Shown one piece after another: positions 36,547-55,312 of a stretch of DNA of 64,000 nt. The number at the start of each line of letters is the position of its first letter. Within the stretch, counting starts at the first letter, position 1. The notes beneath the pieces were generated by a model. It saw only the letters and a program-made list of their open reading frames with translations. It was not told where the DNA came from and ran no database searches. The stretch comes from Candidatus Latescibacterota bacterium (GTDB lineage Bacteria > Latescibacterota > UBA2968 > UBA8231), in the NCBI GenBank assembly GCA_965208105.1, contig OZ242318.1, positions 2,432,001-2,496,000 on the forward strand, written 5' to 3'. The position numbers and the translations under genes were made by a program.

Positions 36547-36552
36547 ACTTAC

Positions 36553-36580
36553 ATTATAGACGTCCAGACGTCATTGTCAA
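36553..36580 (-). promoter_or_regulatory. Consensus sigma70 promoter of the MTase (leaderless) with two GACGTC sites in the spacer
   Basis: Minus strand TTGACA-ATGACGTCTGGACGTC-TATAAT, then 6 nt, then ATG. Confidence 0.8.
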
Positions 36581-36792
36581 GGCAGGAGGAATAGCGCCAG
36601 TACGAAAAATTGACCCAACGGCGGCGGACTGCGGGCCAATGCTGCCACAAGCCTTACTCATGTACTCGCAACGAGGCCAGACCAATCAAGGTTTCCTTCC
36701 GGGTCTCTGAAAAGAGCGAAGATCACTATCCCCGGAATCGCGGCCGACCAGGCGCCAGGACAAGCGCAGTAGCCTGCCGCCATTGCGATGGG

Positions 36793-39708
36793 TTAAAAGT
36801 TGACCACCCAGCTGAACCGCGAGTCCCCCTCGTCAAAGCGATAGGCGTAGCCCAGGCCCATATCCAGGGGGACCGGCACCGAAAAGAGATGGAAGTCCGC
36901 CGTCAACTCGGCGCCGGCGGACTGGTAGGTTCTCGGAGGCCGGGAACCGCCCTCGCCGCGGCCGTGGTCGTAGAAGAAATCGACCTTGACGCGCTTGAAG
37001 TAGGCCAGCGCCCCCAGGTTCCAGTCCGGATAGATCAGCGGCAGGGCATAGCTGGCCGTCCCCTGGAGAAAGCGGCGGTGGAAGCGGTAGCCGTAGCCGC
37101 GGACGAAGGGCTGTTCGCTCGCAAAGCGGTAGGCAAGGGCATCTGCCGCCCCCGGGTCCTGCCATTCGTAACCACCCGCCAACCTCAGGCTGTGATGGGC
37201 GGCCAGACCGGGAAAGAGCAGCCCCAGCTGCCCAGACAGCAAGGTGCCGACGTAGTCTCCGGCAAAGGGCGTGTGGCGGCAGGCCAGCTGCAGGCTCTGA
37301 GCCCAGGCCGGGGCCAGGTCGCGCCGGGCCGAGTCGCGCTCCCGCTCGAAGACCAGCCGGTAGGTCAGCGGCGCAAAGCGCCCGTTGTGGTTTTCCGCGG
37401 ACAGTTCCTTTGCTTCTTGAGCCACACTTGTCGAGTCGGGCCAGAAGAGGTCGCCACCCGGCCGGTTCAGGTCGTCCCTGCCGGCGATGTCGGTCCATTC
37501 CGCACTTGCGCTCAAGTGGATTGCGGACAGCCAGGGTCCGCGGGAAAGATTCAGGGGCAGCCCGACGCCGGCGCTCAGGCTCTTCTCACTCCACCTGTCC
37601 GTCTCTTCTTCCTCCCTGACCTCTAGGCCGCCGCCTTCCATTACCCGCCGCCGAATCACGTACTCTCCCGCCCGCTCGCCCCAGCGCCCGCCGAGGCTGA
37701 GAACGGGGTACCACGCCGCCAGGCTGAAATCCCCCAGGACGCTGAAGGCGCTCTCGTTGCTGTTGTATTCGACTCCTGCGCTCGTGCTGCTGAGACCGAG
37801 CAGGTCGCTGGAGCTGAGATTGAGGGCATAGTTGGGCGGCAGGGGGCTGAAGGACCAGCTATGGATCTTGAGGAGATGGCCCAGCGGCCGATAGGCGCTC
37901 ACCGGATAGACCCGCCGTGGGATGTCCGCCATCACCGGACCGCCCTGCTCCTGGTCTATCAGCGGCTCGTAGTAGCGCACCTGGCGGTCTGCCACCTGCT
38001 CGACCGGCGTCCAGGCCGCCGGGTCCAGGGGCATGGCGGCGATGCGGTAGCCGTCAAGGGTGTACTCCTGGAAGAGGAGCGAATCGCCGGCCACCGCCGC
38101 GCGGGTGGCCGCAAGCGGGCGCGAGGTCACCTGGTAGCGGGCCCCGCTCGGAAGGTGGACGGCGTGGATGTTGTCGATGCCCGAATAGGGAGCGTCGAAG
38201 AGCAGGTAGGAACCCCAGAAGACCGGCCAGCCGATATTGGCGTGGGTATGCGGCAAAACGATCTCTCCCCGGCCATCGCCAGGATCGATGCGCTCGAGTG
38301 TGTTGCCGCGTTCGTCCTGCCTCACCACGGCGATATGGCGCCCGTCCTCCGACCATGCCGGGGTGCGCCAGAAGACCCCTGCGGGGGCTGAGAAGCGGGC
38401 CTGCTCGGCGCCACTGGCGGTCTCCAGCAGCACGAGGTGGCAGCGCAGATCCGGTCCGAATTCAATGGCGGCAAGGCGCCCGCCATCGGGAGAAGGGGCC
38501 GGGGCGAACAACTTGGCCTCGTGGGTGAGCTGGCGCATCCGACCGCTGTCGGTGTCCAGCACCACCACGTCGGAGTAGCTGCGATAGCCCCAGCGCCGGT
38601 CCGGGGTGGAGCGGTTCCAGGCCGCCTTGCCGCCGGATGCGCGGATTCCGCCCAGCGATTGATAGAAGCGCAGGCGCTCCTCGCGGCCGTCGGGGTGCAG
38701 CCGCACCAGGGCCGGCGGGTCGGCCAGGCCGCTCTTGCTCGCCAGCACGCTGCCGTCGGCCAGTAGATGCGGATATGAGTAGTTGGTCCAGACCCCCTGG
38801 CGGCTCTGCCCGGCGAGCACCCGCAGGGGCGTCGTGGACAGGTCTTCTTGCTGGGTCTGCCAAAGCTCGGTCAACTCGTCCATCGTCCGCTCGTAGGTGC
38901 GGGCGGCGCTGGCCCCGGTGTGCTGCCTGAGGGCAAAGCTGAAGGAAAAGGGGAAGGTGGGGACGAGGAACGCCCACCTGGTGGTGCTGCCCAGGACCTT
39001 GTCCCATTTCTCCGGACCGTAGCGGCGCTTGACGTAGGTGGTCATGAAGTACCCCAGCGGATAGTGGCTGGGGTACCAGTCGCGGTACGAACCGTGGTGT
39101 GCCTTGTAGTAGGAATAGCGCCGCCCCGCCAGAAGCAGGGAGCGGATGTGCAGATCGAACCGGGGCATGCGGCCGCGACCGGCCTCGCCCAGTGCGGTCT
39201 CGACTCCCACCGCATCTCCCTCCCAGAACCACGGCGGCACCAGCAACCACGCCATGGCATAGCCCTGTTCGCCGAAAAACAGCGATGCCAAGCGGACGAA
39301 GCCCCGGCGCATGCGGTCGAACTGCACCACGTGGCGCATTTCGTGGACCGCCAGCAACTGGTACCAATCGCCGCTGAGCAGCCTCGCGTTCTGGGGCGGC
39401 GTGCTGAACCACACGCTGCGGCGCGGTGCCAGGGAGACGAAACCGTTGGCCTGAGTCGACTGGTTGACCAGCACCACGTCCATGGGCTTCTGCGGCCCCC
39501 GCAGCGTTTTGGAGACCGGGCCGTAGATGTGCTCGAGCGTATTGGCCGCGCGCTGGGCCTCGCCAGTGATCGCCGCGGGAAAAATGACCTTGAACCGCTC
39601 GGTCCGGATCTGCCGCCAGTCCAATCCTGGCGGGCTTTGTTGGGCGAACGACGGTCCGGCGATCAGGGCCGCCAGCGCAACGGCTGTCAGCACCTTCCTC
39701 GTCAACAT
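36793..39708 (-). CDS. Outer-membrane protein: HExxH zincin-like domain, TolB-like propeller and Omp85-like barrel
   Basis: Signal peptide, AVHEMRH, WFWEGDAV, PAWS.DG / PAPSPDGG repeats, terminal Phe. Confidence 0.7.
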   Translation of the reverse strand: MLTRKVLTAVALAALIAGPSFAQQSPPGLDWRQIRTERFKVIFPAAITGEAQRAANTLEHIYGPVSKTLRGPQKPMDVVLVNQSTQANGFVSLAPRRSVWFSTPPQNARLLSGDWYQLLAVHEMRHVVQFDRMRRGFVRLASLFFGEQGYAMAWLLVPPWFWEGDAVGVETALGEAGRGRMPRFDLHIRSLLLAGRRYSYYKAHHGSYRDWYPSHYPLGYFMTTYVKRRYGPEKWDKVLGSTTRWAFLVPTFPFSFSFALRQHTGASAARTYERTMDELTELWQTQQEDLSTTPLRVLAGQSRQGVWTNYSYPHLLADGSVLASKSGLADPPALVRLHPDGREERLRFYQSLGGIRASGGKAAWNRSTPDRRWGYRSYSDVVVLDTDSGRMRQLTHEAKLFAPAPSPDGGRLAAIEFGPDLRCHLVLLETASGAEQARFSAPAGVFWRTPAWSEDGRHIAVVRQDERGNTLERIDPGDGRGEIVLPHTHANIGWPVFWGSYLLFDAPYSGIDNIHAVHLPSGARYQVTSRPLAATRAAVAGDSLLFQEYTLDGYRIAAMPLDPAAWTPVEQVADRQVRYYEPLIDQEQGGPVMADIPRRVYPVSAYRPLGHLLKIHSWSFSPLPPNYALNLSSSDLLGLSSTSAGVEYNSNESAFSVLGDFSLAAWYPVLSLGGRWGERAGEYVIRRRVMEGGGLEVREEEETDRWSEKSLSAGVGLPLNLSRGPWLSAIHLSASAEWTDIAGRDDLNRPGGDLFWPDSTSVAQEAKELSAENHNGRFAPLTYRLVFERERDSARRDLAPAWAQSLQLACRHTPFAGDYVGTLLSGQLGLLFPGLAAHHSLRLAGGYEWQDPGAADALAYRFASEQPFVRGYGYRFHRRFLQGTASYALPLIYPDWNLGALAYFKRVKVDFFYDHGRGEGGSRPPRTYQSAGAELTADFHLFSVPVPLDMGLGYAYRFDEGDSRFSWVVNF

Positions 39709-42184: not shown

Positions 42185-43036
42185 GTGAGCCAGCCATCCC
42201 CCCTCATCTCCGCCCCGGACCTGTCCGCCCACCTGAACGAACCCGACTGGTGCATCCTCGACTGCCGCTTCGCCCTCGATGACCCCGGACAGGGCCGCCG
42301 CGACTACGCCGACGCCCACATCCCCAATGCCCTCTACGCCCACCTCGACGACGATCTCTCCGGACCGGTGGCCGCCGGCAGGACCGGGCGCCATCCGCTG
42401 CCCGCCCCTGCCAGCTTCGGCGCAACCCTTTCGCAATGGGGGATCGATTCGAAGGTGAATGTGGTGGCCTACGACTACGGAGATGCGACCATCGCGGCCC
42501 GGCTGTGGTGGATGCTGCGCTGGATGGGGCACGAGAAAGCCCTGGTGCTGGACGGCGGCTGGTCCGCCTGGCTGGCGATGGGCGGCGCCGTGACCGGCGA
42601 ACCGGGACGCCGCCGGGCGCGGTCCTGCCAGGTGCTTCCCAATCGCGCCATGGTGGCGACGAGCGCCGAGGTGGATGAAATCCGCGGACGCAGCGACTGG
42701 CTGCTGATCGACTCCCGCACCGAGGAGCGCTTCCGCGGCGAATCAGAGCCCATCGACCCCGTCGCCGGCCACATACCCGGCGCCGTCAACGCCCCGTTCA
42801 CGGCCAACCTCGGCAGCGACGGCCGCCTGCTGCCCGCTGCAGGGCTCAGGTCCCGTTTCTCCGGAATTCTCGGAGAGACCGCGCCCGACAGGGCCGTGTT
42901 CTATTGTGGATCCGGAGTGACGGCCGCCCACCAGCTTCTGGCCCTGGCGGTTGCCGGCGTGGAGGGGGCGCGTCTGTACGCGGGGTCCTGGAGCGAGTGG
43001 ATCGCCGATCCCCGGCGGCCCGTTGCCGGTCCGTAG
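42185..43036 (+). CDS. Two-domain sulfurtransferase (rhodanese, SseA-like)
   Basis: HIPNA, ARLWWMLR, LDGG, IDSR...RFRGE.EPID..AGHIPGA, YCGSGVTA, LYAGSWSEW. Confidence 0.9.
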   Translation: MSQPSPLISAPDLSAHLNEPDWCILDCRFALDDPGQGRRDYADAHIPNALYAHLDDDLSGPVAAGRTGRHPLPAPASFGATLSQWGIDSKVNVVAYDYGDATIAARLWWMLRWMGHEKALVLDGGWSAWLAMGGAVTGEPGRRRARSCQVLPNRAMVATSAEVDEIRGRSDWLLIDSRTEERFRGESEPIDPVAGHIPGAVNAPFTANLGSDGRLLPAAGLRSRFSGILGETAPDRAVFYCGSGVTAAHQLLALAVAGVEGARLYAGSWSEWIADPRRPVAGP

Positions 43037-43357
43037 CGATGATGCTGTGGCTGGAAGGACCAAGGTGCCTGGTCTTTGGATACTTTCAATGGCGCAAACT
43101 CCAGGCCGCGGATATCAAGTCAAGCCCAACTACAAATCTTCCCTGGAGTTTCCCCGGTTCGGGGGATAAATCTGGACTTGAAACTTCAAGAAGTACGTAG
43201 CCATTCCATACGTCTTCGATATACAATACACTCTCGAAGTGATTTCAAGATGAGGATCTCTCCATTTTTGGTGAAATTTTGGTGGAATCTATTCCTTCCT
43301 TTGAATTTCGCAAAAAAAGAACTTGACCATTCCATTTTAGTAATCTAACTTCGGTAC

Positions 43358-43435
43358 AAATAAAGGGCGGGGCGCCTTCCACGCGCCACCGCCCCAATAC
43401 TTAACCCTTTCGCAGGAGGGTTAAGTATGTATTCT
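43358..43435 (-). ncRNA. Putative cis-antisense small RNA
   Basis: Minus-strand TTGACT-17-TAACTT promoter (43440-43468), two hairpins, ends in a GC stem followed by TTTATTT. Confidence 0.35.
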
Positions 43436-43534
43436 TTTCAAGTTACAACATCCTCGGGCAGAAGTCAAGCCCAAATTCCTTCCTCCTTCTTTTTATCTCA
43501 AACCACCTTCAGGGTACTTAGCGAGTTGGAATGA
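43427..43534 (+). CDS. Putative 35-aa small ORF (MYSFQVTTSSGRSQAQ...)
   Basis: AGGAGG RBS sequestered in the hairpin ATACTTAACCCT/AGGGTTAAGTAT; upstream TTGACC-17-TAACTT promoter. Confidence 0.3.
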   Translation: MYSFQVTTSSGRSQAQIPSSFFLSQTTFRVLSELE

Positions 43535-44258
43535 CATGGCCAGGCGGGAGACCCACCCCGTCGCGGTCGTGAGGAATCCCGCCCGGCTTCTGTAGGGTTG
43601 AAGGATAAAGGGGAAACCTGTCATTTCATTTCAAAAAGAAGGGACCTATCGTGAAAAGCATAAAGAACCACCTGCCCAGAGAATGGGTAGGAATCAGCGT
43701 AATCCTGTGCTTTCTCGCCATTCTGTGTATGACTCTAAGCGTTCTCAATATCTGGGGATGAAGCGAAGACTATCCGTCCAGGGAACGCTGCTGGGATCCA
43801 GAATCTTCAAGGAAAAGCCCGTGGCCAAATCCATAGCCGGTCGTCCAATCTTCTCAATGGAATGGACGAGCAGGGACTTATGGCCGCCATTGGCAGCGCC
43901 GGGAACATGAAAAAGTACCCACAAGTGGCTGCTTTGGTGAGCAACGGCTACATCCGCTTGAAACTATTTTGATGAGGTGGCGCAGTTATGCAGTTAGAAC
44001 AACAAGACGGCGGAGTTGGGGAGATTCTTATCAGGCTCTCAGGAGTTGCCAACAAGCTGACCCTCCATTCAAGCACAGGATTGAAGCTATCGACATTGGA
44101 GGGCTGCTTCCTGAGAAATTCAAGGGGGACACTTTCCACATGGAAGCCCTCCTGCAAGTATCTGGGTCTTTCTACAGTCTCCAGAAATCGCAGGGCAAAT
44201 GGATGCAACGCCTAACAGAGAGATCACAAATTTTATCAACAAAAGTAAAAATTTTAAG

Positions 44259-44801
44259 ATGTTGTATTTTATGAAGTTTATCAAGAAAATTTGTATTCAC
44301 TGCCTGGGTTGCCTGGTCATTGGTTTGATAGTGATCCTTAACCTCTCCTGTTCGCCTCCCAGTACCAGGCAATCGGCGCCGGAGTTCGTCTTTAAGAATC
44401 TGAATGGCGAGCCAATTTCGCTGAATTCGCAACGCGGAAGGATTGTGCTGCTCAATTTTTGGGCTACCTGGTGTTCTCCATGCAGACAGGAACTGCCAAT
44501 ACTTATTGACATTTTTAACAAATTCTCCGGAAAAAACTTCAACGTGTTGGGGGTGACGCTAAACTCCGGTGAACTTGCGATAGACCTTTGGATTGAAAAC
44601 TTCAAGGTCCCCTATCCCATTCTGGTGGCCAATGACACTGATAAAGAAATCCTGGACCAGTATGGTGTGGATAAGGGGATCCCAAGATCCGTTCTCATCG
44701 ATCGCGAGGGGTATATACACAAAACATACCGAGGGCTCATCGAGCTCGATGAATTTGAGAAGGACATCGACAACCTCCTGACCATGGAAAAGAAAATTTG
44801 A
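44259..44801 (+). CDS. TlpA-family thiol-disulfide oxidoreductase (lipoprotein)
   Basis: APEF.FKNLNGE.ISL..RGRIVLLNFWATWCSPCRQELP, GIPRSVLIDREG; lipobox-like LNLSC; start uncertain (44199/44259/44271). Confidence 0.88.
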   Translation: MLYFMKFIKKICIHCLGCLVIGLIVILNLSCSPPSTRQSAPEFVFKNLNGEPISLNSQRGRIVLLNFWATWCSPCRQELPILIDIFNKFSGKNFNVLGVTLNSGELAIDLWIENFKVPYPILVANDTDKEILDQYGVDKGIPRSVLIDREGYIHKTYRGLIELDEFEKDIDNLLTMEKKI

Positions 44802-47614
44802 GTCCGCCGATGCGAATTTTACTCCAACCTGCTCTCCACGTGCTTGGATGCATCATGCTCGCCGGTTGTACACCCGAACCCAAATTGGATAATGTGCGTC
44901 TCAGCTATTCGGTTCGGTTGGGTCCGGCTGGTTCCGATACGGTCTCGGTCGCCCTGAGCACCAGTGGTTTAAAAAACGAAAGCGTTCTTTTGAGGAGTTA
45001 TGAACCTCGGAATTTCATGCGTCTTTCAGGTCTTGAAGTTTTCGACTCCGATGGGAGTCGGATTCTCCATGAAACCATCGAGACTTATCCCGGCGGCTCC
45101 AAAGAGCCTCTGCTGCACTACCGCCTTACTCCGCCAGATCACAAAGAGACAAGGGTAGTCTATCGGGTGCGACCAGGCATGCAGATCGGGATGAAGCACG
45201 GCAGACATCCTACCCATGTCAGTGGCTACCTTGGCGAAGATTTCGGGCTGATATCTGGACGCAACCTCTTTCTTGTCCCGGATGCCCCTCTCGGTTTCGT
45301 GGAAGTCGAGGTCACAGCCCCATCCTCTTGGAGGGTAGTCAGCACCTGGCCGCAAATCTCGGAGACCAGCGAAGGTAATGCAGTTTTCCAGCCCCGTATC
45401 TTCGAAACACGAAAGCCAGAGGATCTGGTCAACGGCCTGCTTGGCCTTGGAAAGCTCGTCACCTATGAAGAAGAGGTTGAGGGCGCGACAATATCCGTTT
45501 CGGTTTACGAACGATGGCCGGAGCATTTCAGGCTGCACTTGGCTCGAAGTGGTTTCGCACTTTACCGCAATATTGCGACCATTTTCGATTCCCAGATCAA
45601 AGATCCCTACAACTTGATTTTTACCCCCAAGGGACCAGGAGTCCCCAGCATTGCGGTTGCTGCAACCGGTCATGGAAATGGCCGGGAAATGTGGCCGGCA
45701 TCGAAAGGCCGCTGGATCTCAGCAGCTGAAGAAATGGCCTATCGCTGGCTCCGCTATCTTCCCCACAGGATGGAGTTCAAGGTTGCAGATGATATGTGGT
45801 TCATCGACGGCACCGCCATGTATCTTGCTCTCCAAGCCTGTGAGGACGCAGGGATCATTGACGGCATCCGTCCGTACCTGGCAGAATCTTACCGTTCGTA
45901 CAACAGCAAGCGGTTGCGTTCGTTCACCGAGGATAAAACACCGGTTCCAGCGCGTCTCTACGACCAACCGGACCGGATCACCAAAGACCGAGGCCGGCGA
46001 ATTGGTCCTGCTCTGGCGCACCATTTAGATATGCTGATTCAAAGCCATTCGAATCGAAAATTCGATCTGACTACTGTCCTGAAACACGCAATGAAGAAAA
46101 GAGACAACTTATCCTTGCGTAATCTGGTTGCCGACGCGACGGGATTCGACCCGGAGGGCTTCTTCGAGCGGCATATCCACCCTCAGACCATGCCTATTAT
46201 CCCGTTGCATTTCACAAGTTCAAGCCTCCCGCTTGAGCCTGTGGTCCCACGTCTACCTCTATTTCGTTCGGGGAATGCAGCCGTGGTGGATACCATTTCT
46301 CTGGTCCTTACCGGCAAGACACAAGGTTATCTCGAGGCGTGCGGCTGCAAATTCAACATGTCGGGAGGTATCACGCGCCGTGCCCGACTAATCAGCCAGA
46401 TCCGGGAACGACGCCCCAATGTACTGGTACTCGACGCGGGCAATGCTTTCCCGACGGAGCAGGATGTTCCCTACATGGACAACCTGACATCAGCCGAGAT
46501 AGATGCTTACCTGGAGGCCATGAGATTAATGGGCTATCGCTTCGCCGCGATCAACGAGTACGAGCTGTACTATGGTGGCGAATTTCTGAAATCCAAGGTT
46601 GAGAGCACCGGATTCCCCTTTCTCGGCGCCAACGTATTCCACGGTGGGAAGCTTATAGCCGCTCCTGCGGTCTCGGTCCGGGTAGCCGGTTATCGCATCG
46701 GCTTTGTCGGTATCCTGGAAACCCAGGCCCGGTTCGAGCCTGGCCGCTTCGGAGACAATACCTCGGATATTGTCGTTGGGGATCCGATAACCGCAGTGCG
46801 ACAGTATCTCCCCGGGATCACCGAACGCAACGACTACGTGGGTGTCATCGGTGGTTTCAGCAAAGACCTGGTCTACAAACTGGTTCAGGAATTTCCCGAA
46901 CTCGACCTGGTTATCAATACCGGTCCGCACTTCAATATCACCGAAGACATCCTGAACGGAAGAGTAGTCCTCAAAAAGGATGTCCTCTATGGTTTTCTGC
47001 AAAACACGTTGGTGCTATACGCCGAAGGGGGGGTTTACGGTCTGCATCATGTCGACATCGGAGTCGACCAAAATGGACAACTTGGAAAAGTTGACATCAA
47101 CTATTTCGAAGTGGAGCGGCGAATCGAAGAAGACGAAGAAATGCGAGTTTTCCTGAACCGATTTTATTCAGACATGGCGAGTCGGGAGAGTCTGGTTTCC
47201 GGTCAGGTGGAACCCCTCTTCCGGTGGGATGACGTTCACGACCGCGGGTCCTACGTAGGCACGAATAAATGCGCGACGTGCCACGTTGGCCAACACCGGC
47301 AATGGTCGGCGACAGGCCATTCCACCGCCTACAAAACCCTGCTGGCCGTGCATCGCCAGTATGCTCCCAAGTGCGTCAAATGCCACGTGGTTGGCCTCGG
47401 CCGGTTATCGGGATTTGACATTTTGGAACCGAGCATGGATCTGGCCAACGTGCAGTGCGAGGTCTGCCATGGACCGGGCGAGCATCATGCACAAAGCCCG
47501 TCCAGCGCCAATATCAGGCGCAGTCCGAGTGAAGAGACCTGTACTGAGTGTCACAACCCTGAGCACGACGATGATTTCGACTATCTTCGAGATTGGAAGA
47601 TAGTGAGCCACTGA
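44798..47614 (+). CDS. Lipoprotein fusion: M61-peptidase-like, UshA-like metallophosphoesterase and tetraheme cytochrome c domains
   Basis: Lipobox LAGC; M61-like N-terminal half (WFIDG..Y; HExxH position reads EEMAY); GYLEACGC..GGITRR, LVLDAGN, PFLGAN, RIGFVGI; heme motifs CATCH, CVKCH, CEVCH, CTECH; TTG overlaps the tlpA stop. Confidence 0.75.
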   Translation: MSPPMRILLQPALHVLGCIMLAGCTPEPKLDNVRLSYSVRLGPAGSDTVSVALSTSGLKNESVLLRSYEPRNFMRLSGLEVFDSDGSRILHETIETYPGGSKEPLLHYRLTPPDHKETRVVYRVRPGMQIGMKHGRHPTHVSGYLGEDFGLISGRNLFLVPDAPLGFVEVEVTAPSSWRVVSTWPQISETSEGNAVFQPRIFETRKPEDLVNGLLGLGKLVTYEEEVEGATISVSVYERWPEHFRLHLARSGFALYRNIATIFDSQIKDPYNLIFTPKGPGVPSIAVAATGHGNGREMWPASKGRWISAAEEMAYRWLRYLPHRMEFKVADDMWFIDGTAMYLALQACEDAGIIDGIRPYLAESYRSYNSKRLRSFTEDKTPVPARLYDQPDRITKDRGRRIGPALAHHLDMLIQSHSNRKFDLTTVLKHAMKKRDNLSLRNLVADATGFDPEGFFERHIHPQTMPIIPLHFTSSSLPLEPVVPRLPLFRSGNAAVVDTISLVLTGKTQGYLEACGCKFNMSGGITRRARLISQIRERRPNVLVLDAGNAFPTEQDVPYMDNLTSAEIDAYLEAMRLMGYRFAAINEYELYYGGEFLKSKVESTGFPFLGANVFHGGKLIAAPAVSVRVAGYRIGFVGILETQARFEPGRFGDNTSDIVVGDPITAVRQYLPGITERNDYVGVIGGFSKDLVYKLVQEFPELDLVINTGPHFNITEDILNGRVVLKKDVLYGFLQNTLVLYAEGGVYGLHHVDIGVDQNGQLGKVDINYFEVERRIEEDEEMRVFLNRFYSDMASRESLVSGQVEPLFRWDDVHDRGSYVGTNKCATCHVGQHRQWSATGHSTAYKTLLAVHRQYAPKCVKCHVVGLGRLSGFDILEPSMDLANVQCEVCHGPGEHHAQSPSSANIRRSPSEETCTECHNPEHDDDFDYLRDWKIVSH

Positions 47615-47716
47615 AATCGCGGCGGAGAAAGGAGACCATTTTATTGGCTTCAAAGCAGATCTGCCCATGTCGATCGGTAGGACGGTTAGCTCACACCTAA
47701 ATTCGGAGGAAGAATC

Positions 47717-47947
47717 ATGTCGCGTCGACTCAAGATAATTGCAGCTACCATGCTCGTTTTGGGACTGACCTACTTCATTCCTGCCACCAATCAACCAAAC
47801 AGCACCTACTCCGTGCTCGACCCAGTCTTGGTTGAACGGGCTGAAGCAGGTTATTGGAAAACGAACTATGTCTGCGTAAGTGGGGAGTATTGCGAGAGCA
47901 GTCCAGGTGAGTTCTGCTATTATATCGATCCGCTGCATTGCTACTAA
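47717..47947 (+). CDS. Small secreted Cys-rich peptide, copy A
   Basis: GGAGGA RBS; Sec-type leader ending VERAEA; core GYWKTNYVCVSGEYCESSPGEFCYYIDPLHCY; paralog at 51547. Confidence 0.85.
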   Translation: MSRRLKIIAATMLVLGLTYFIPATNQPNSTYSVLDPVLVERAEAGYWKTNYVCVSGEYCESSPGEFCYYIDPLHCY

Positions 47948-48019
47948 AGGCAAACAACTCACTTGAGGAAAGCTGTGGTGGTTTCTCCAGGTGAACGGCG
48001 GGTCGATCAGAGCACAATC

Positions 48020-48056
48020 GAGGGTCGGCAGCATGGCTGCCGACCCTCCTATTCTT
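48020..48056 (+). terminator. Stem-loop between peptide A and large protein A
   Basis: GAGGGTCGGCAGC-ATG-GCTGCCGACCCTC followed by a weak T-rich tail; conserved in module B. Confidence 0.5.
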
Positions 48057-48103
48057 TGTCCAATGGTTGCACTTATTACCAACAAGAAAAAAGTTGTACA
48101 AGG

Positions 48104-51040
48104 ATGAATTCCACAACCTGCTTGCGGATTTCTCTTTTCCTTCTAGTTATGAGTACCATGTTGGTCGAGGCTATTCCACCTCAGCGCGTAAGACTACCGG
48201 AGGTGACTCCTGGGCAATTCTACCTCAGAGCATCCCTGCCATCCTACCGCAACTTCGCATTTCAGCCCTACACCAACTACCCAGGGCACACAGCCTCTCG
48301 CTCTTCCGGGGTTCCGTATTCCGACTCGCCACGAGCCCTTTTCAACTCCATGGGAGATTATCTCGCCACAGGGTACGATCTCTACGACTGGAACGAGAAG
48401 CGCAATTCGGAAGCATCGTCCAAAAATGGTCAAATCTTTGGTAGCTCCATCTATAAAAACTCCAGGGATTTTACCTGGGCCTTTGGTGACCTTGTCGTGG
48501 CTCGAGACAGTCAGGGTTCGTGGGGATATAGTGCGATCGTGGGGGATGGCCTGATCGCGCGGTTTACCCCGCTCACTTTGTCCAGGGTCGATTTTGATGG
48601 GGTACGATTGGATCTGACCACCCCTTCGCTGCATGCCACCTTGCTGGGTTCTCGCCCGGAGCGTCCGGGAAATAGCAAGGCCATTGCCAAATGGATCGTT
48701 GAAAATACCGAGTATGCGGATGATTCTCCGCTGCTCCTGGGCGGCCGCTTGCAGGGAAACCTCGGCAGGTTGCAACTAGGAATGACCGGGGTCAACCTGC
48801 ACATGTTCCGCAGCACGGCGAGCGACAACACCCTGAAGGGCGTACTGCGCCCCAGCCAGCCTCTCATCGCATGGGTTCTCTTTCGTTTCACCGACGATTC
48901 TCCCACAGACGGTCGCGGAGGAGCCGTGGTCCAGGACCCCGTGCTCATTGTCAACGGCGTGTCCAGGTCCGACCTCCAGGCGCAGGTGATTCGCCATCGG
49001 GCAGGTACCCCATCACAGGTTGGAACCGTCTCTCAAGCTACCGGTGAATTCCGCCCTACTCCCTACTACGTTTTTCGCAGCAGTGTCGGTGGTTTTGAGT
49101 ACGCTCGTTTTTTCCGGAACCGGGAAATTCCTTTGTACGCCGACTATCTCTACCTCATCGACCACGATCGCGGGAAGGACGTGAGCAAGGATACCAACCT
49201 GGAGGAGTTGCTCAATCTGTTTAAGGTAGAGAAACCCAGCCGGATCCTGCATGCCAACGGTGACGACCAGCTTATCTACCTATTCGACGTTTCCCAAGAG
49301 CCCTACATCGAATCGGTGAAACTGGAGGTTGTTCTGTCCAACGACTACAAAGTCGACGTGGCTACCCTGATAGACGAGGACCTCCGCGCGCCCAAGCGCC
49401 ACGCCCAGTTCAAGACAACCTATTACCACACGACATTGCGGGCTAAGGGCAACGTCCAGGACCGCTCCAACCTTCAACGGGTGAAACTGCATGTCGGAGA
49501 GAACACTGCCCTGTTCACCTACAGCGCCGATGCTCATCTAAGCCTTGTGGGTATGGACGTGCATGGAGAAGTGGCTCGATCACGGCGCTACTCCCGCTAC
49601 CCGGCCGAAGCCGCAGAGACACCTGTTTTTGAAAGGGGTGCTCGCTCCAACGATAGGGGAACGGCCTTCTACATTAATGCCATTGGCAAACTGAGCCGAG
49701 GCCGCTTGGGGCTGGAGTACTTCTCTATGCAGCCGGATTTCACCACCGAGGTTCGCTACCATCTTCCCGCCGATGCGGACCATACTCAACGCCATCTTCG
49801 CGGTGTGAGGAACCGCACCATGTACTGGAAACTCGTGCAGGACAACGATGACGGCGACCGATTCGCCGATACGCGCGTAGGCCAACCTCTGAGGAATATC
49901 CCCGATGGTTCGACCACCGACCCCGACGGGGTTTTCCCCGGCCGCGACGAGGACCGAGACGGGATTCCTGACACCAATCGCAACTTCAACGGTATTCCCG
50001 ACTACGAGGAACCATTCCTTATCTTCGACGTGGAACCCAACGAGTATGTTTATGGATTGGACCGCAACCATAACGACGAGCCGGATGTCCGCGAAGACGA
50101 TCTCCATCCCGACTATCCCTACTACCCCGACCAGAAAGGATATCACCTTTTCCTGCAGCTCGGACCGAGGTCCGGGTGGTCGGCGGGCATCGGCCGCTAT
50201 GCGGTGGAGGAAATCGCCGGTGGCGGGCGCAATCGCTCCACCTATGCCCTGCTAGCCTTCCGCGCCAGGGGTACCAAGGAGCACTGGCGACTCTTTCTTG
50301 AAAACCACCTGCGGCGGGTTGAAGACGATATTGCCGATGAGTTCGGCGTTCAAGTGGAGCAACCCCAGACCGGCCTCGAAGAGATCCCCCTGGTCTTCGT
50401 AAGCCAGATCCAGCCCGACCCCCTGTTCTATCGGGACAGTTACGTCAACGAGACCTATCTCGAAGCGGAGCTGCAGCCGTGGTCCGCCCTGCGGTGGGTG
50501 AACAAGTGGCGGCTACGGCTCAACTGGCAACAGGGTGGAAACCGACAGCGCGCCAGAAGGCTGGACTACTGGACCCTGGTCCAGCGCGCCGAGTATTCTG
50601 CAACTTGGGGAAAGTTAAAGGTACGGCCGCAGTGCAAAGTCTTGCTCCTGCATCACGTGGACCAGGATGCGGACCGCCTGATTACCGGTGCCTATGCCCG
50701 TCGCACCTTGCGCTCAGAACTCAGCCTCATCCCCATTTTGCGCATCGAGTATCCCATTCTCCGGCGCACCACCTTGAGGATCGGGGTGCAAGGTTGGGGG
50801 CCGCTTCCCTACCAAAGGCATGACCGGGTACGGGAGCGCAACAATCTCGAGCGCCGCACCGCCTTTGCCACCCTTGCCAACCGCTCCGTCTACCGCGGAT
50901 ACGATCTTCACACCATCATCGGTCTCAAAGGGGACAGCATGGACTACAACAACCGGTTGCGGCGGGGAGAGGAGTACGATACCTGGTCGTTCTTTGTGCG
51001 TGTCTTGACCGGATTCACCGAGTTCGGACCACTCATATAG
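48104..51040 (+). CDS. Large secreted / outer-membrane protein with Asp-rich Ca-binding-like motifs, copy A
   Basis: Signal peptide, DNDDGDRFAD / DEDRDGIPD / NFNGIPD / DRNHNDEPD motifs, amphipathic beta-strand-rich C-terminus; paralog at 52051. Confidence 0.75.
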   Translation: MNSTTCLRISLFLLVMSTMLVEAIPPQRVRLPEVTPGQFYLRASLPSYRNFAFQPYTNYPGHTASRSSGVPYSDSPRALFNSMGDYLATGYDLYDWNEKRNSEASSKNGQIFGSSIYKNSRDFTWAFGDLVVARDSQGSWGYSAIVGDGLIARFTPLTLSRVDFDGVRLDLTTPSLHATLLGSRPERPGNSKAIAKWIVENTEYADDSPLLLGGRLQGNLGRLQLGMTGVNLHMFRSTASDNTLKGVLRPSQPLIAWVLFRFTDDSPTDGRGGAVVQDPVLIVNGVSRSDLQAQVIRHRAGTPSQVGTVSQATGEFRPTPYYVFRSSVGGFEYARFFRNREIPLYADYLYLIDHDRGKDVSKDTNLEELLNLFKVEKPSRILHANGDDQLIYLFDVSQEPYIESVKLEVVLSNDYKVDVATLIDEDLRAPKRHAQFKTTYYHTTLRAKGNVQDRSNLQRVKLHVGENTALFTYSADAHLSLVGMDVHGEVARSRRYSRYPAEAAETPVFERGARSNDRGTAFYINAIGKLSRGRLGLEYFSMQPDFTTEVRYHLPADADHTQRHLRGVRNRTMYWKLVQDNDDGDRFADTRVGQPLRNIPDGSTTDPDGVFPGRDEDRDGIPDTNRNFNGIPDYEEPFLIFDVEPNEYVYGLDRNHNDEPDVREDDLHPDYPYYPDQKGYHLFLQLGPRSGWSAGIGRYAVEEIAGGGRNRSTYALLAFRARGTKEHWRLFLENHLRRVEDDIADEFGVQVEQPQTGLEEIPLVFVSQIQPDPLFYRDSYVNETYLEAELQPWSALRWVNKWRLRLNWQQGGNRQRARRLDYWTLVQRAEYSATWGKLKVRPQCKVLLLHHVDQDADRLITGAYARRTLRSELSLIPILRIEYPILRRTTLRIGVQGWGPLPYQRHDRVRERNNLERRTAFATLANRSVYRGYDLHTIIGLKGDSMDYNNRLRRGEEYDTWSFFVRVLTGFTEFGPLI

Positions 51041-51365
51041 TGGATTCAGCCGCTGCTTTTGCCAGGATGTCGCGCTCGGTGTGCAACTGCTTGATCTGGC
51101 GACGTAAGCGTCGTATTTCGGCGCGTTCGGAGGTGGTCAAGCCATCGTGGCGCCGGCCGCTGTCGAGGTCGGCCTGTTTTACCCAGGTGTGGATCGTCTG
51201 AGCGGAGGGCCCGAACTCTTTGGCCAAGGAGCCTGGCGAGCGTCCGGAGCGGACCAGATCGACCATCTGCTGGCGAAATTCGGGGGGATAGGGAATACGT
51301 GATTTAGGCATGGGGGGCTCCTTTTCATCAAGTGATAAGGTACCCGCCAAACCGGGTCAACTCCA
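51041..51365 (-). mobile_element. Truncated IS3-family element (left IR and orfA)
   Basis: End TGGAGTTGACCCGG; orfA MPKSRIPYPPEFRQQMV.LVRSG...ERDILAKAAA cut at the orfA/orfB junction; no DDE orfB. Confidence 0.88.
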
Positions 51366-51444
51366 GACCTGTACTGAGAGTCACAACCCTGAGCACGACG
51401 ATGATTTCGACTATCTGCGGAATTGGAAGATAGTGAGCCACTGA
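51366..51444 (+). pseudogene. Duplicated 3' tail of the multiheme fusion gene
   Basis: Copy of 47536-47614 (TCTESHNPEHDDDFDYLRNWKIVSH*; CxxCH lost); similarity continues to about 51498. Confidence 0.88.
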
Positions 51445-51546
51445 AACCGCGGCGGAGAAAGGAGACCATTTTATTGGCTTCAAAGCAGATCTGCCCATGC
51501 TATCTACAGCACTGTTAACCCACCACGAAAATGGGAGGGAAAAACC

Positions 51547-51771
51547 ATGACTCGTCGACGCAAGATCATAGCCGCTACCATGCTCGTTCTGGGTCTGACT
51601 TACTTCATTCCGGCAACCAACCAACCAAACAGCGCGTACTCCGTGCTCGATCCAATCTTGGTTGAACGGGCTGAGGCAGGATGGCAATTCCATAAGATCT
51701 GTCGGTCGGGTAGCTGCTGCCCTGAACAAAATGAATTCTGCTATGAAGTCGATGAAGATACGTGCTATTAA
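51547..51771 (+). CDS. Small secreted Cys-rich peptide, copy B
   Basis: GGAGGG RBS; leader nearly identical to copy A; core GWQFHKICRSGSCCPEQNEFCYEVDEDTCY. Confidence 0.85.
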   Translation: MTRRRKIIAATMLVLGLTYFIPATNQPNSAYSVLDPILVERAEAGWQFHKICRSGSCCPEQNEFCYEVDEDTCY

Positions 51772-51963
51772 AGTCGAGTAGAGCTGAAGTCACTACGTGT
51801 GGTCGAAAGTCTCTACCGCCGGAGATATGGCACAACCTTCCATTTTTGTTATTCCAGGGTGCACCTATTTTAATTGTTGACACCAATCGCCTTTCGATCA
51901 GGGGAAATGATGTCAACAATTTCTGGTCCCGGAACTAACGTTCACCAAGCGCAGGCGCGCCTT

Positions 51964-51995
51964 GGAGGGTCGGCATATACTGTCGACCCTCCTTT
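51964..51995 (+). terminator. Stem-loop between peptide B and large protein B
   Basis: GGAGGGTCGGCA-TATAC-TGTCGACCCTCC-TTT. Confidence 0.5.
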
Positions 51996-52050
51996 ATGAG
52001 ATAGTTGCAAAATAGTGCGCGTTTTGCAAACAGACAGGATCAGTCCAGAC

Positions 52051-54981
52051 ATGCACTCTACAACCTGCTCGCGGCTTTTCCTACTCACCGTCGTTTGCTA
52101 TTCCATACCGACCCAGGCAACTCCGCCCCAGAGCGTCGAATTACCCGAGGTAATTGCCGGACGTTTCTATCTGCAGATGCCGCGGCCGGCCTATCGCAAC
52201 TTCGCCTTTCAGCCCTACACTAACTACCCAGGCCATACCATGTCGCGCTCCACCAAGTTGTACTCGGACGCACCGCAAGTCTTTTATGGAAAAATGGGGG
52301 CCTTTCTTTTCACAGGCTACGATCTCTATGCCTGGTCTGAACGACGCGAGCCTCAACCCGTGGCCGCAAAGGGTCGGCTCTACGGTAGTTCCATTTTCAG
52401 GAACCGCAGTGTATTTGAATTCGCCTTCGACAGCCTGGTTGTAGCTCGGGACAGTCAAAGTTCGTGGGGATACAGTGCGATTGTGGGGGATGCGCTGATC
52501 GCGCGGTTTACGCCGCTGACCTTGTCCAAGGTCGATTTTGATGGGGCCCGGTTTGACCTGGCCACCCCCTCGCTGCAAGCCACCTTGCTAGGTTCCCGCC
52601 TGGAGCGTCCGGGGTTTACCCTGGGACTGGCCAGGTGGCTCGTGGATGACACCGAGTTTGCGGATGATTCCCCGCTTCTCCTGGGCGGCCGCCTACAGGG
52701 AAAACTCGGCAGATTGCAACTCGGATTGACGGGCGTCAACCTTCACATGTTCCACAGCACCAGGAGCGGCAACAGCCTGAAGGGCGTGCTGCGCCCCAGC
52801 CAACCTCTCATAAGTTGGGTCCTCTTTCGATTCACCGACGACTCTCCAGCAGACGGTCGCGGCGGAGTCGTAGTCCAGGACCCCGTGCTCATTGTCAACG
52901 GGTTGCCCCGGTCTGACCTCCAAGCGCAGGTGATTCGCCATCGGGCAAATGCCCCCTCCCAGGTTGGAACCTTCTCTCAAAATACCGGTGAATTCCGCAC
53001 CACTCCCTATTACCTTTTTCGCGGCAGGGTCGGAGTTTTCAACTACACTCGTTTTTACCGGAACCGGGAAGTACCCTTGTACGCCGACTATCTCTACCGC
53101 ATCGACCACGCCCGCGGGAAGGACGTGAGCGCGGACACCAATCTGGAAGGGTTGCTCCGTCTGTTTCGGTTAGAGCCATCCAACGGGATCCTGCGGGCCG
53201 ACGGTGACGACCAGCTCGTCTACCTGTTCGATCTTTCGCAAGAGCCCTACGTCGAATCAGTGGCACTGGAGGCCCTGCTGGCCAACGACTATAAGGTAGA
53301 TGTGGCTACTTTGGTCGACGAAGACGTCCATGCCTCCAAGCGCCACACTCAGTTCAAAACGACCTATTACCACACGGCGCTGAGGGCAAGGGGCAACGTG
53401 CAGGACCGCTCCAATCTGCAACGGGTGCGACTGGAGGTCGGCGAAAACACCGCCCTGTTCACCTACAGCGCCGATGTCCACCTGAGCCTTGTGGGCATGG
53501 AAGTGCATGGAGAAGTGGCCCGCTCGCGGCGCTACTCCCGCTATCCGGCCGAAGCCGCAGAGAAACCATTTTTTGAACAAGGCCCGCGGTCCAGCGAAGA
53601 GGGAATGGCCTACTTCGTAAATGCTACTCGAAATTTTGGTCACATCCTCTTGGGGTTGGAGTACTTCTCGATGCAGCCGGATTTCACCACCGAGGTCCGC
53701 TATCATCTTCCCTTAGAGGGCCAGTTTTTTCAACGCCACGTCCAAGGTGTGAAAAATCGCACCATGTATTGGCAACTGGTCCAGGACAACGACGACGGCG
53801 ACCGCTTCACCGATACGCGCGTAGGTGACCCGTTGGATATCTCCGATGGCTCAACAATCGACTCCGACGGGGTTTTCCCGGGCCGTGACGAGGATCGCGA
53901 CGGTATCCCCGATACAAATCGCAACTTCAACGGGATACCCGACTACGAAGAACCCTTTCTCATGTTCAACGTGGAACCGAACGAGTACGTCTACGGGTTG
54001 GACCGCAACCACAACGACGAGCCGGATGTCCGCGAGGACGATCTCCGTCCCGACTACCCCTACTATCCCGACCAGCAAGGATATCATCTCTTCCTGCAGT
54101 TCGGACCCCGGTCCGGGTGGTCGGCAAGTGCAGGCCGTTACGGGGTCGAGGAGGTGGCCGGGTTTGGGCGCAATCGCTCCACCTATGCCCTGCTGACCTT
54201 CCGCGGCAGGGACACCAGGGAGCGCTGGCGCATTTTCCTTGAAAACCACTTGCGACGGGTTGAGGACGATATTGCCGATGAGTTCGCCGTTCAGGTGGAG
54301 CAACCCCAAGTGGGCGGCGACGAGGTTGCGCTCGTCTTCGTCAGTCAGATCCGGCCGGATCCCCTGTCCTACCGCGACAGCTTTGTCAACGAGACCTATC
54401 TCGAAGGGGAACTGAAGCCCTGGTCCACCCTGCGATGGGTGAACAAGTGGCGGTTGCGGGTCAACTGGCAATCGAAGAGAAACCGTCAGCGCGCCAAAAG
54501 ACTGGACTACTGGACCCTGGTCCAGCGCGCCGAGTACACTGCGACTTGGGGCAAGCTCAAGGTACGGCCGCAGTGCAAAGTCTTGCTCCTGCATCACGTG
54601 GACCAGGATGCGGACCGCCTGATTACCGGTGCCTATTCCAGCCGCACCCTGCGCTCGGAGCTCAGCCTTATCCCCATCCTGCGCATCGAGTATCCCCTTC
54701 TCCGGCGTACTACCCTGCGGCTTGGGGTGCAAGGTTGGGGACCGTTGCCCTACAAGAGACATGACCGGGTACGGAATGGCAACAATCTCGAGCGCCGCAC
54801 CGCCTTTTTCACCCTGGCCACACGCTCTTCCTACCGCGGATACGATCTTCACACTATCATCGGTATCAAAGGCGACAGCCAGGACTACGACGACCGGTTG
54901 CGGCGGGGAGAGGGGTACGATACCTGGTCGTTTTTTGTGCGGGTCTTGACCGGATTCACTGAGTTCGGACCACTCATATAG
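52051..54981 (+). CDS. Large secreted / outer-membrane protein, copy B
   Basis: Full-length colinear paralog of 48104-51040 with the identical C-terminus DTWSFFVRVLTGFTEFGPLI. Confidence 0.78.
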   Translation: MHSTTCSRLFLLTVVCYSIPTQATPPQSVELPEVIAGRFYLQMPRPAYRNFAFQPYTNYPGHTMSRSTKLYSDAPQVFYGKMGAFLFTGYDLYAWSERREPQPVAAKGRLYGSSIFRNRSVFEFAFDSLVVARDSQSSWGYSAIVGDALIARFTPLTLSKVDFDGARFDLATPSLQATLLGSRLERPGFTLGLARWLVDDTEFADDSPLLLGGRLQGKLGRLQLGLTGVNLHMFHSTRSGNSLKGVLRPSQPLISWVLFRFTDDSPADGRGGVVVQDPVLIVNGLPRSDLQAQVIRHRANAPSQVGTFSQNTGEFRTTPYYLFRGRVGVFNYTRFYRNREVPLYADYLYRIDHARGKDVSADTNLEGLLRLFRLEPSNGILRADGDDQLVYLFDLSQEPYVESVALEALLANDYKVDVATLVDEDVHASKRHTQFKTTYYHTALRARGNVQDRSNLQRVRLEVGENTALFTYSADVHLSLVGMEVHGEVARSRRYSRYPAEAAEKPFFEQGPRSSEEGMAYFVNATRNFGHILLGLEYFSMQPDFTTEVRYHLPLEGQFFQRHVQGVKNRTMYWQLVQDNDDGDRFTDTRVGDPLDISDGSTIDSDGVFPGRDEDRDGIPDTNRNFNGIPDYEEPFLMFNVEPNEYVYGLDRNHNDEPDVREDDLRPDYPYYPDQQGYHLFLQFGPRSGWSASAGRYGVEEVAGFGRNRSTYALLTFRGRDTRERWRIFLENHLRRVEDDIADEFAVQVEQPQVGGDEVALVFVSQIRPDPLSYRDSFVNETYLEGELKPWSTLRWVNKWRLRVNWQSKRNRQRAKRLDYWTLVQRAEYTATWGKLKVRPQCKVLLLHHVDQDADRLITGAYSSRTLRSELSLIPILRIEYPLLRRTTLRLGVQGWGPLPYKRHDRVRNGNNLERRTAFFTLATRSSYRGYDLHTIIGIKGDSQDYDDRLRRGEGYDTWSFFVRVLTGFTEFGPLI

Positions 54982-55312
54982 TGGATTCAGCCGCTGCTTT
55001 TGCCAGGATGTCGCGCTCGGTGCGCAACTGCTTGATCTGGCGACACAGGCGTCGAATTTCGGCGTGTTCGGTGGTGGTCAAGCCATCGTGGCGCCGGCCG
55101 CTGTCGAGGTCGGCCTGTTTTACCCAGGTGTGGATCGTCTGAGCGGAGGGCCCGAACTCTTTGGCCAGGGAGCCTGGCGAGCGTCCGGAGCGGACCAGCT
55201 CGACCATCTGCTGGCGCTGGCGAAATTCGGGGGGATAGGGAATACGTGATTTAGGCATGGGGGGCTCCTTTTCATCAAGTGATAAAGTACCCACCAAACC
55301 GGGTCAACTCCA
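54982..55312 (-). mobile_element. Truncated IS3-family element, second copy
   Basis: Near-identical to 51041-51365 and truncated at the same nucleotide. Confidence 0.88.

Follow-up and report, generated by a model that had tools for sequence, protein, structure and literature searches.

A hypervariable Cys-rich peptide family tied to a tetraheme M61-like fusion lipoprotein in two bacterial phyla: a probable new peptide-maturation system

A six-gene island in a sponge symbiont

The 64,000-nucleotide stretch analysed here, which we call the window, is taken from the 4.85-Mb single-contig genome (labelled G000) of a Candidatus Latescibacterota bacterium. It carries an island of six co-oriented open reading frames (ORFs), all on the + strand, that encode in order a TlpA-like thioredoxin, a large fusion lipoprotein, a small Cys-rich peptide (pep1), a giant barrel protein (big1), a second peptide (pep2) and a second barrel protein (big2) (Table 1). 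Our comparison of genomes supports the view that the peptides are tied to the full-length, M61-bearing form of the fusion across two phyla, and we conclude that the pair of peptide and heme lipoprotein is probably a new peptide-maturation system. An earlier note made from the letters of the window had described a co-oriented cluster in a lower-GC island, and the composition bears this out: guanine-plus-cytosine (GC) content is 47-60% over 43-56 kb against 64-69% in the flanks, with 45% in the TlpA gene, 54% in the fusion gene, 49-50% in the peptide genes and 57-59% in the barrel genes, in a genome of 61.6% GC. The host is a sponge symbiont, and the sequencing runs that contain the stretch are mostly sponge or marine metagenomes (20 rows listed).

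The same note had read the fusion as a peptidase-like, phosphoesterase-like and tetraheme lipoprotein, and here profile searches, an AlphaFold2 (AF2) model and Foldseek agree. Pfam returns a weak Peptidase_M61_N match and Cytochrome_C554 (PF13435, E 4e-13), and profiles searched against the PDB place an M61 region at residues 148-423, a 5'-nucleotidase region at 502-768 and a cytochrome c554 region at 796-898 (1bvb), with 7xyo matched at E 1e-10. The AF2 model is confident, with a predicted local distance difference test (pLDDT) score of 84.6 and a predicted template modelling (pTM) score of 0.85, and Foldseek assigns it an M61/M1 aminopeptidase fold (4fgm, E 1.8e-22; 7xyo, E 1e-20; 8j9c, E 4e-18) and the 5'-nucleotidase fold of CD73 and UshA. 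PDB 6i5b, the top profile match and the nonaheme cytochrome OcwA according to the search listing, covers the heme modules only and was set aside as a model for the protein.

HExxH is the zinc-binding catalytic motif of peptidase family M61. The fusion shares the M61/M1 aminopeptidase fold without it: HExxH occurs neither in the window protein nor in any of 39 aligned full-length family members. What these members do keep is an E-x-CGC motif (39/39; E-A-CGC-K in fuller form), around which the classic metallophosphatase ligand motifs are, by eye, replaced, and exactly four CxxCH heme motifs (36/39, and likewise four in the window fusion). Over its C-terminal two-thirds the fusion resembles the 'UshA-like (seleno)protein' family, NCBIfam NF041198 (E 6e-71; 239.6 bits against a whole-protein cut-off of 275). 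The likeness lies in the CxC form of a CxU motif, the 5'-nucleotidase-like domain and the four c554-type hemes, and the difference is an additional M61-like N-domain of about 480 aa in the window fusion; it is to this extended architecture only that the peptides are linked. Excerpts of two papers list the UshA-like family with its CxU motif as a selenoprotein without a stated function (PMC13188914, PMC2398784). The fusion family is the Cys form of this selenoprotein family, which points to redox catalysis at CGC. Among the best 150 metagenome representatives, about 40 align over the full length of the fusion at 25-46% identity, and the full-length architecture is not rare in metagenomes. Proteins of 913-1004 aa at loci L039-L045 (genera g12 and g8) start with the UshA-like/tetraheme part and continue for about 500 unassigned residues; having another architecture and neither peptide nor TlpA nearby, they were rejected as members of the same system.

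Upstream of the fusion lies a protein in which the WCSPC motif given in the note is present (CSPC at residues 92-95 of a 200-aa ORF) and which matches Redoxin (E 5e-20) and AhpC-TSA (E 4e-23). Its best NCBIfam model is ResA (E 8e-31), although the curated cut-offs are missed for both ResA (107.2 against 170 bits) and TlpA (74.1 against 230 bits). Translational coupling of the two genes had been proposed. The TlpA stop codon at 44799-44801 overlaps a TTG at 44798, an alternative fusion start, and the ATG at 44810 yields a clean MLAGC lipobox and agrees with the N-termini of homologues; the genes hence lie side by side, with a gap of 8 nt or an overlap of 4 nt. Adjacency thus stands, and the overlap holds only for the TTG start.

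Each peptide opens with a signal-like N-terminus, in which a hydrophobic stretch is preceded by basic residues; a Tyr motif that does not vary, a site resembling A-x-A and a Cys-rich core of hypervariable sequence make up the rest. Comparison of the pep1 and pep2 leaders (residues 1-45) gives non-synonymous and synonymous divergences (dN and dS) of 0.04 and 0.57, a ratio (omega) of 0.07, and in the core the corresponding proportions of differing sites are pN 0.49 and pS 0.78 (saturated; omega not computed). A strong ribosome-binding site of GGAGG type precedes both genes. The purifying selection on the leader at this dS, the diverged core and the ribosome-binding sites together show a genuine peptide gene, in which the translated leader is conserved and the core hypervariable. 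A leader hidden Markov model (HMM) searched against 42,603 ORFs of at least 35 aa from the same genome finds pep1 and pep2 alone (E 6e-28 and 2e-26; next E 1.7). No Pfam or NCBIfam model matches the family peptides, and the 53 database relatives are all unnamed or 'hypothetical'. The Atlas lead NVEALA (PF14055; 0.80) was rejected: Pfam gave no match for 11 or 15 peptides (E up to 10 or 1), a six-frame genome search left the peptide loci unmatched, and the term was absent from the literature searched.

Table 1. Features of the island and its borders (window coordinates).
Feature	Position	Strand	Evidence
TlpA/ResA-like periplasmic thioredoxin, WATWCSPC	44259-44801 (alternative start 44199)	+	Pfam, NCBIfam
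Fusion lipoprotein: M61-like, UshA/5'-nucleotidase-like and tetraheme c554-like domains	44810-47614 (alternative start TTG 44798)	+	profiles, AF2 model
pep1, 76-aa prepropeptide: signal-like N-terminus, Y-S-V-L motif, A-E-A-G site, 4-Cys core	47717-47947	+	
Hairpin in pep1/big1 gap, 13-bp stem, T-rich tail; terminator- or attenuator-like	48020-48048	+	
big1, giant outer-membrane beta-barrel	ORF 47963-51040; likely true start 48104	+	
IS3-type transposase orfA remnant (HTH_Tnp_1), closes unit 1	51033-51350	-	
Duplicated fusion 3' tail and intergenic DNA, duplication junction	51365-51499	+	96% identical to 47535-47669
pep2, 74-aa prepropeptide: pep1-like leader, 5-Cys core	51547-51771	+	
Hairpin in pep2/big2 gap, about 12 pairs; read by eye, tail too T-poor for scan	51964-51992	+	
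big2, giant outer-membrane beta-barrel	ORF 52015-54981; likely true start 52051	+	
Second IS3-type orfA remnant; duplicated unit ends at about 55312	54974-55297	-	
Low-GC (47-49%) non-coding stretch 5' of TlpA; hairpin 43397-43428; repeat about 43145-43531	43001-44258		

Association of peptide and fusion across genomes

Relatives of the peptides were first found in genus g16, where three of five peptide loci also hold TlpA and fusion homologues (36-46% identity) and, at those three, no barrel. Across 168 Latescibacterota genomes the fusion N-domain occurs in six (G000, G016 with two loci, G032, G073, G047 and G087) and the peptide family in seven, namely the six fusion holders and G026. Every one of the seven fusion loci has a family peptide within 3.8 kb, and in three distant genomes of the phylum a leader-type Cys-rich ORF begins 59-146 nt downstream of the fusion. 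The peptide of G026 (locus L018) lies in a low-GC patch in which nearby translated ORFs, next to a 600-aa protein, look by eye like transposase fragments.

The second phylum is of Acidobacteria type and was entered via a metagenome-assembled genome of Candidatus Aminicenantes; one of its peptide homologues is named 'Acidobacteria bacterium' by its source. Six of 401 sampled genomes hold the fusion and five hold the peptide, all of them fusion holders, in 1, 4, 4, 7 and 11 copies that are mostly dispersed; in the sixth fusion holder, G132, the fusion sits on a 2.6-kb contig. Where flanks could be read, a family peptide follows the fusion by 14-92 nt at four of seven loci, so that over both phyla a peptide lies within 3.8 kb at 11 of 14 fusion loci. 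The 27 peptides of this phylum (L172-L198, in G206, G382, G508, G516 and G564, mostly at a distance from the fusion) have a strongly conserved S-P-Y-L-S-A-L-S-D-L leader; after it come an A-x-A-like site and the core, which is hypervariable, contains about six Cys and has Cys as its last residue. Three of these genomes share one nearly identical core beside the fusion. The expectation of a conserved-leader, variable-core family of secreted-type Cys-rich peptides is therefore borne out, with relatives in two phyla.

The alignments used for these searches included peptides first found beside fusions, whose own matches arise by construction, and the informative parts of the census are the absence of the family elsewhere and the extra, dispersed copies. 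A control scan of metagenomes selected heme-motif patterns and so returned the wider UshA-like/cytochrome family rather than full-length fusion loci: none of its 80 loci, all of which lack the M61-like domain, has a leader peptide.

TlpA adjoins the fusion at five of the seven Latescibacterota loci (G000, both in G016, G032 and G087) and also on the short contig L046, and is absent at the G073 and G047 loci. The island TlpA is 37-46% identical to the TlpAs beside the g16 and L046 fusions and 39% identical to that of G087, against at most 34% for TlpA-like paralogues in its own genome. On L046, which belongs to G132, TlpA and fusion are 46% and 44% identical to those of the window, compared with 27-30% for the other second-phylum genomes searched; this closeness suggests a transfer or a binning error.

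The loci differ in what else they carry. An NHL-propeller lipoprotein is added at G073 and G087, and a tetratricopeptide repeat (TPR) + GWxTD protein follows the peptide at G073 and G047. At the g16 loci one to several secreted proteins of 320-380 aa, without a Pfam match, flank the peptides (L019 5703-8777; L020 7377-8357; further sites at L022 8302-9333 and L021 5314-9789); they carry A-H-(R/Q/G)-G-D-R after the signal region and S-W-x-x-I-K-A-S at the end, and one distant homologue in G000 has a weak CBM9-like match. At L012/L019 (G032) the peptide gene is immediately preceded by what look, by eye only, like genes for a histidine kinase and a NarL/LuxR-type response regulator.

The barrels, the tandem duplication and the mobile island

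The earlier note had seen two modules, each a peptide with a paralogous envelope protein that would serve as its cognate receptor, exporter or immunity protein. The genes are as described, and big1 and big2 are 77% identical. The repeated arrangement itself is one tandem duplication of 3.8 kb, with units at 47535-51364 and 51365-55312, rather than a pair of separate modules. The unit starts within the fusion gene, at its 3' end, so that 47535-47669 recurs as 51365-51499 at 96% identity, and runs through fusion tail, peptide and barrel to an insertion sequence (IS) remnant of the IS3-type orfA (HTH_Tnp_1), further copies of which are found elsewhere in the genome. Identity between the units is 94-98% at the ends and 60-90% in the interiors. 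For big1 against big2, dS is 0.57, dN 0.14 and omega 0.245, and for the two IS remnants the values are 0.067, 0.026 and 0.38; given this uneven divergence, either the ends have been homogenised or the interiors exchanged. A 3786-bp contig from another sponge sample joins 47669 directly to 51538, so that in that strain the fusion is followed at once by a pep2-type peptide in a single-unit form, and a third sample spans both duplicated units.

The AF2 model of big2 is all-beta (pLDDT 76, pTM 0.72), and its top Foldseek matches are Deinococcus SlpA (PF21620; 7zgx, E 1e-7, and 8ae1) and the MtrB porin (6r2q_B, E 3.6e-7), followed by TonB-dependent transporters and LptD. TM-scores are about 0.2 against the SlpA and MtrB matches. 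In VIA every row is an outer-membrane barrel, with Z about 12-13, and the SlpA chain 8ae1 aligns over 394 residues at Z 11.8. By the all-beta model and the Foldseek and VIA matches together, big2 has a large outer-membrane beta-barrel fold. In the Pfam scan the barrels gave no match to an SLH domain or to MtrB_PioB and stayed below the gathering threshold of PF21620 (21.9 and 16.2 bits against 35), a family that many of the 201 scored database homologues carry; all of these homologues are unnamed or 'hypothetical'.

Within its own genome big2 matches 43 ORFs (itself and a few fragments included), giving about 42 paralogues, some 34 of them at 44-77% identity and some 8 at 27-30%. Many sit in tandem pairs or triplets (for example C1:487965-493870, 1711841-1721385 and 4274785-4280847), and recurrent neighbours are FlgD-Ig/type IX secretion system (T9SS)-tail proteins, DUF6785/DUF6784 membrane proteins and F5/8-type-C proteins. 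A peptide lies upstream of only two of the 43, both in the window. The closest third paralogue of big1 and big2 (76%; G000:C1:1694270-1699261) has none; it lies directly upstream of a 671-aa TPR + TlpA-domain protein, and a similar 686-aa protein with a C-terminal Redoxin domain is encoded in the window at 10852-12912 (-). We conclude that big1 and big2 belong, as ordinary members, to an envelope family that is general and expanded, and that they are not partners of the peptides. An expansion of about 42 barrels of around 1000 aa in a symbiont genome of this size merits separate study.

How strongly, then, do these data speak against a cognate pairing, in which each peptide has its own ~980-aa exporter, receptor or immunity factor and the tandem pairs are co-diversifying functional modules? 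Peptide and barrel were duplicated and kept together, with the greatest divergence in the peptide core and the first ~200 barrel residues and a cassette-like pattern of conserved unit ends and diverged interiors; pep2 stands with a big2-type barrel in another strain too; a large protein follows the peptide at three distant loci; and a diderm needs an outer-membrane route if the peptide is to leave the cell. Against this, 41 of the 43 matching ORFs have no peptide, peptide-free tandem barrel pairs are common in the genome, the 13 other fusion loci all lack a barrel homologue, a hairpin stands between each peptide gene and the barrel gene after it, the barrel omega is that of ordinary purifying selection, and the nearest third paralogue is peptide-free. 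We regard such a pairing as unlikely. In the gene-neighbourhood census, homologues of the large protein usually occur without such peptides, whereas those of the full-length fusion usually have them. A related candidate, a porin-cytochrome arrangement in which an MtrB-like barrel would serve the multiheme protein, was rejected: in contrast to the Mtr complex, the pairing of porin and cytochrome is not conserved here, the barrel being absent from all other fusion loci.

The barrel is accordingly left out of the functional unit, because peptides accompany 2 of 43 barrels, a hairpin follows each peptide gene, and the strain contig joins the fusion to pep2. The hairpins are consistent with a transcription unit that runs from TlpA through the fusion to the peptide, and from which read-through into the barrel gene is attenuated. 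The island as a whole is mobile and of lower GC, and its barrels stand beside peptides only through the tandem duplication of the 3.8-kb segment. Four further genomic sites match the repeat at 43145-43531 with 67-75% identity, and every one of them has an additional IS orfA remnant within about 1-7 kb; repeat and remnants suggest that debris of mobile elements borders the island on both sides. Within the window, the island also encodes a GNAT protein, a sulfatase, an enolase-superfamily enzyme and a metallo-beta-lactamase-fold protein. Elsewhere in the window a second lower-GC patch (54-56% at 35-37 kb) is associated, at 35389-39708, with a DNA methylase (N6_N4_Mtase) and an adjoining 971-aa ORF without a Pfam match.

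A possible route for peptide maturation

Our favoured explanation, which we hold at about even confidence, is that the functional unit consists of the fusion lipoprotein and one or more Cys-rich prepropeptides, usually together with TlpA in Latescibacterota, and that it carries out heme-wired oxidative folding. Signal-like N-termini would direct the export of the peptides. A short pro-region, which the Tyr motif and the A-x-A-like site would make up between them, may be recognised in the periplasm, likely by the catalytically dead M61-like domain. Acting through its CGC centre, the degenerate UshA-like domain could then oxidise or shuffle the core cysteines until they adopt a defined topology, of disulfides or other Cys-based links, with electrons leaving, if the flow runs in that direction, through the four hemes. 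TlpA would act either as a proof-reading reductase or isomerase, or as the reductant of the CxxCH cysteines of the fusion for heme attachment. A more specific version makes the fusion an unrecognised periplasmic peptide maturase, a heme-wired CxC (CxU in relatives) sulfhydryl oxidase or isomerase with a pseudo-peptidase leader reader. Such an enzyme would install defined cystine or Cys-derived topologies on Sec-exported, hypervariable prepropeptides, of which a genome can encode up to a dozen copies, and pass the electrons to the respiratory chain, as a bacterial counterpart of conotoxin and knottin biosynthesis; we advance this version tentatively and consider it rather less than an even prospect.

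Several observations weigh against the oxidative-folding explanation. Three of the 14 fusion loci have no adjacent family peptide: L157 has none at all, and at L162 and L163 the small Cys-containing secreted ORFs upstream of the fusion are unrelated to the family. In G026 the peptide occurs in a mobile context and no fusion accompanies it, and many peptide copies are dispersed away from the fusion. The genomes are inter-related, and the co-occurrence counts therefore overstate independence. At three Latescibacterota loci a large protein follows the peptide (TPR + GWxTD in two, of unknown type in one), which may mean a variable downstream envelope partner. TlpA is found at one of seven second-phylum loci, and there as a weak match. 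No RNA run is among the 20 listed runs that hold the stretch. No curated family or paper ties the domains of the fusion to peptide maturation, and the mechanism thus rests on analogy. In a complex prediction the fusion (residues 25-800) and peptide (20-74), both given as alignments, scored 0.02 against a mark of 0.32, which speaks neither for nor against a complex.

The rarity of TlpA in the second phylum makes it an accessory, dispensable component, so its proposed membership of the peptide system holds in part: it is a regular neighbour of the fusion in Latescibacterota and no more than a sporadic one beyond. It may serve the cytochrome rather than the peptide. That it is a dedicated ResA/CcmG-like reductant of the four CxxCH motifs for heme attachment, and not a peptide processor, is a possibility we place slightly short of even. 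ResA is its best NCBIfam match, TlpA where present is always immediately upstream of the cytochrome-bearing fusion, and most second-phylum loci keep fusion and peptide without it; on the other side, the match falls below the ResA cut-off, at least eight other TlpA-like genes in the genome could serve general cytochrome maturation, and the island copy has been co-inherited with the module among G000, g16 and L046.

The predicted redox character of the fusion also admits a reading in which it is a respiratory or detoxifying enzyme, acting for example on sulfur, selenium or other small substrates at CxC/CxU, and in which the peptides, rather than being matured products, would be rich in thiols and serve it as carriers, as metal buffers or as shuttles for electrons. 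The profile search turns up SoxB as a distant relative; in the excerpts cited above the UshA-like CxU family figures only as a redox-type selenoprotein; some peptide cores carry acidic tails; and a two-domain rhodanese is encoded just upstream at 42185-43036. The rhodanese, however, lies in the high-GC flank outside the island, the wider UshA-like/cytochrome family occurs without such peptides, and the hypervariability of the cores in sequence, length and Cys number (4 to 8) is unlike a conserved cofactor or carrier site. We judge this reading improbable.

Oxidative folding by the fusion can be set beside known systems. In the mitochondrial disulfide relay, electrons pass from the CPC motif of Mia40 to Erv1 and on to cytochrome c, and CXC motifs mimic protein disulfide isomerase. 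The likeness lies in a CxC redox motif, a substrate-binding domain, c-type hemes as a possible electron sink and small Cys-rich substrates. The comparison is an analogy only; there is no relationship in sequence or fold, and here these functions would be combined in one bacterial periplasmic lipoprotein. Conotoxins are made as signal-leader-core prepropeptides, and in prochlorosin-type systems scattered precursors are served by a single enzyme. The peptides share with precursors of ribosomally synthesized and post-translationally modified peptides (RiPPs), and with secreted Cys-rich precursors, a conserved N-terminal part, a variable Cys-rich core and many dispersed copies, up to 11 per enzyme gene; they differ in that the architecture of the partner enzyme has not been described for peptide maturation. 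The class-defining maturases of known RiPPs (LanM, YcaO, radical SAM, MNIO) had been reported missing from the locus, and Pfam indeed gives no match to them among 20 window ORFs, the six main island ORFs included, other small ORFs being unscanned; nor was a transporter, a protease or any known maturase seen among the window ORFs scanned. A literature search, with supplementary tables outside its coverage, found no description of such a peptide/multiheme system. The precursors of barrettides from sponges, in an excerpted account, have a signal-leader-Cys-rich core organisation and an unknown disulfide catalyst (PMC12426817).

If the linkage reflects maturation, the fusion would represent a new enzyme class for disulfide-rich peptides, and the leader motif together with the fusion would provide a simple two-marker rule for genome mining. 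The UshA-like CxU/CxC selenoproteins, listed among marine selenoproteins in 2008 and without a function ever since, would also gain one. The same finding would bear on sponges, in which, by the excerpted literature, no catalyst is known to set the disulfide topology of peptides with Cys bridges, and it would suggest that uncultured Latescibacterota and Acidobacteria harbour many knotted peptides that are hypervariable and as yet unannotated.

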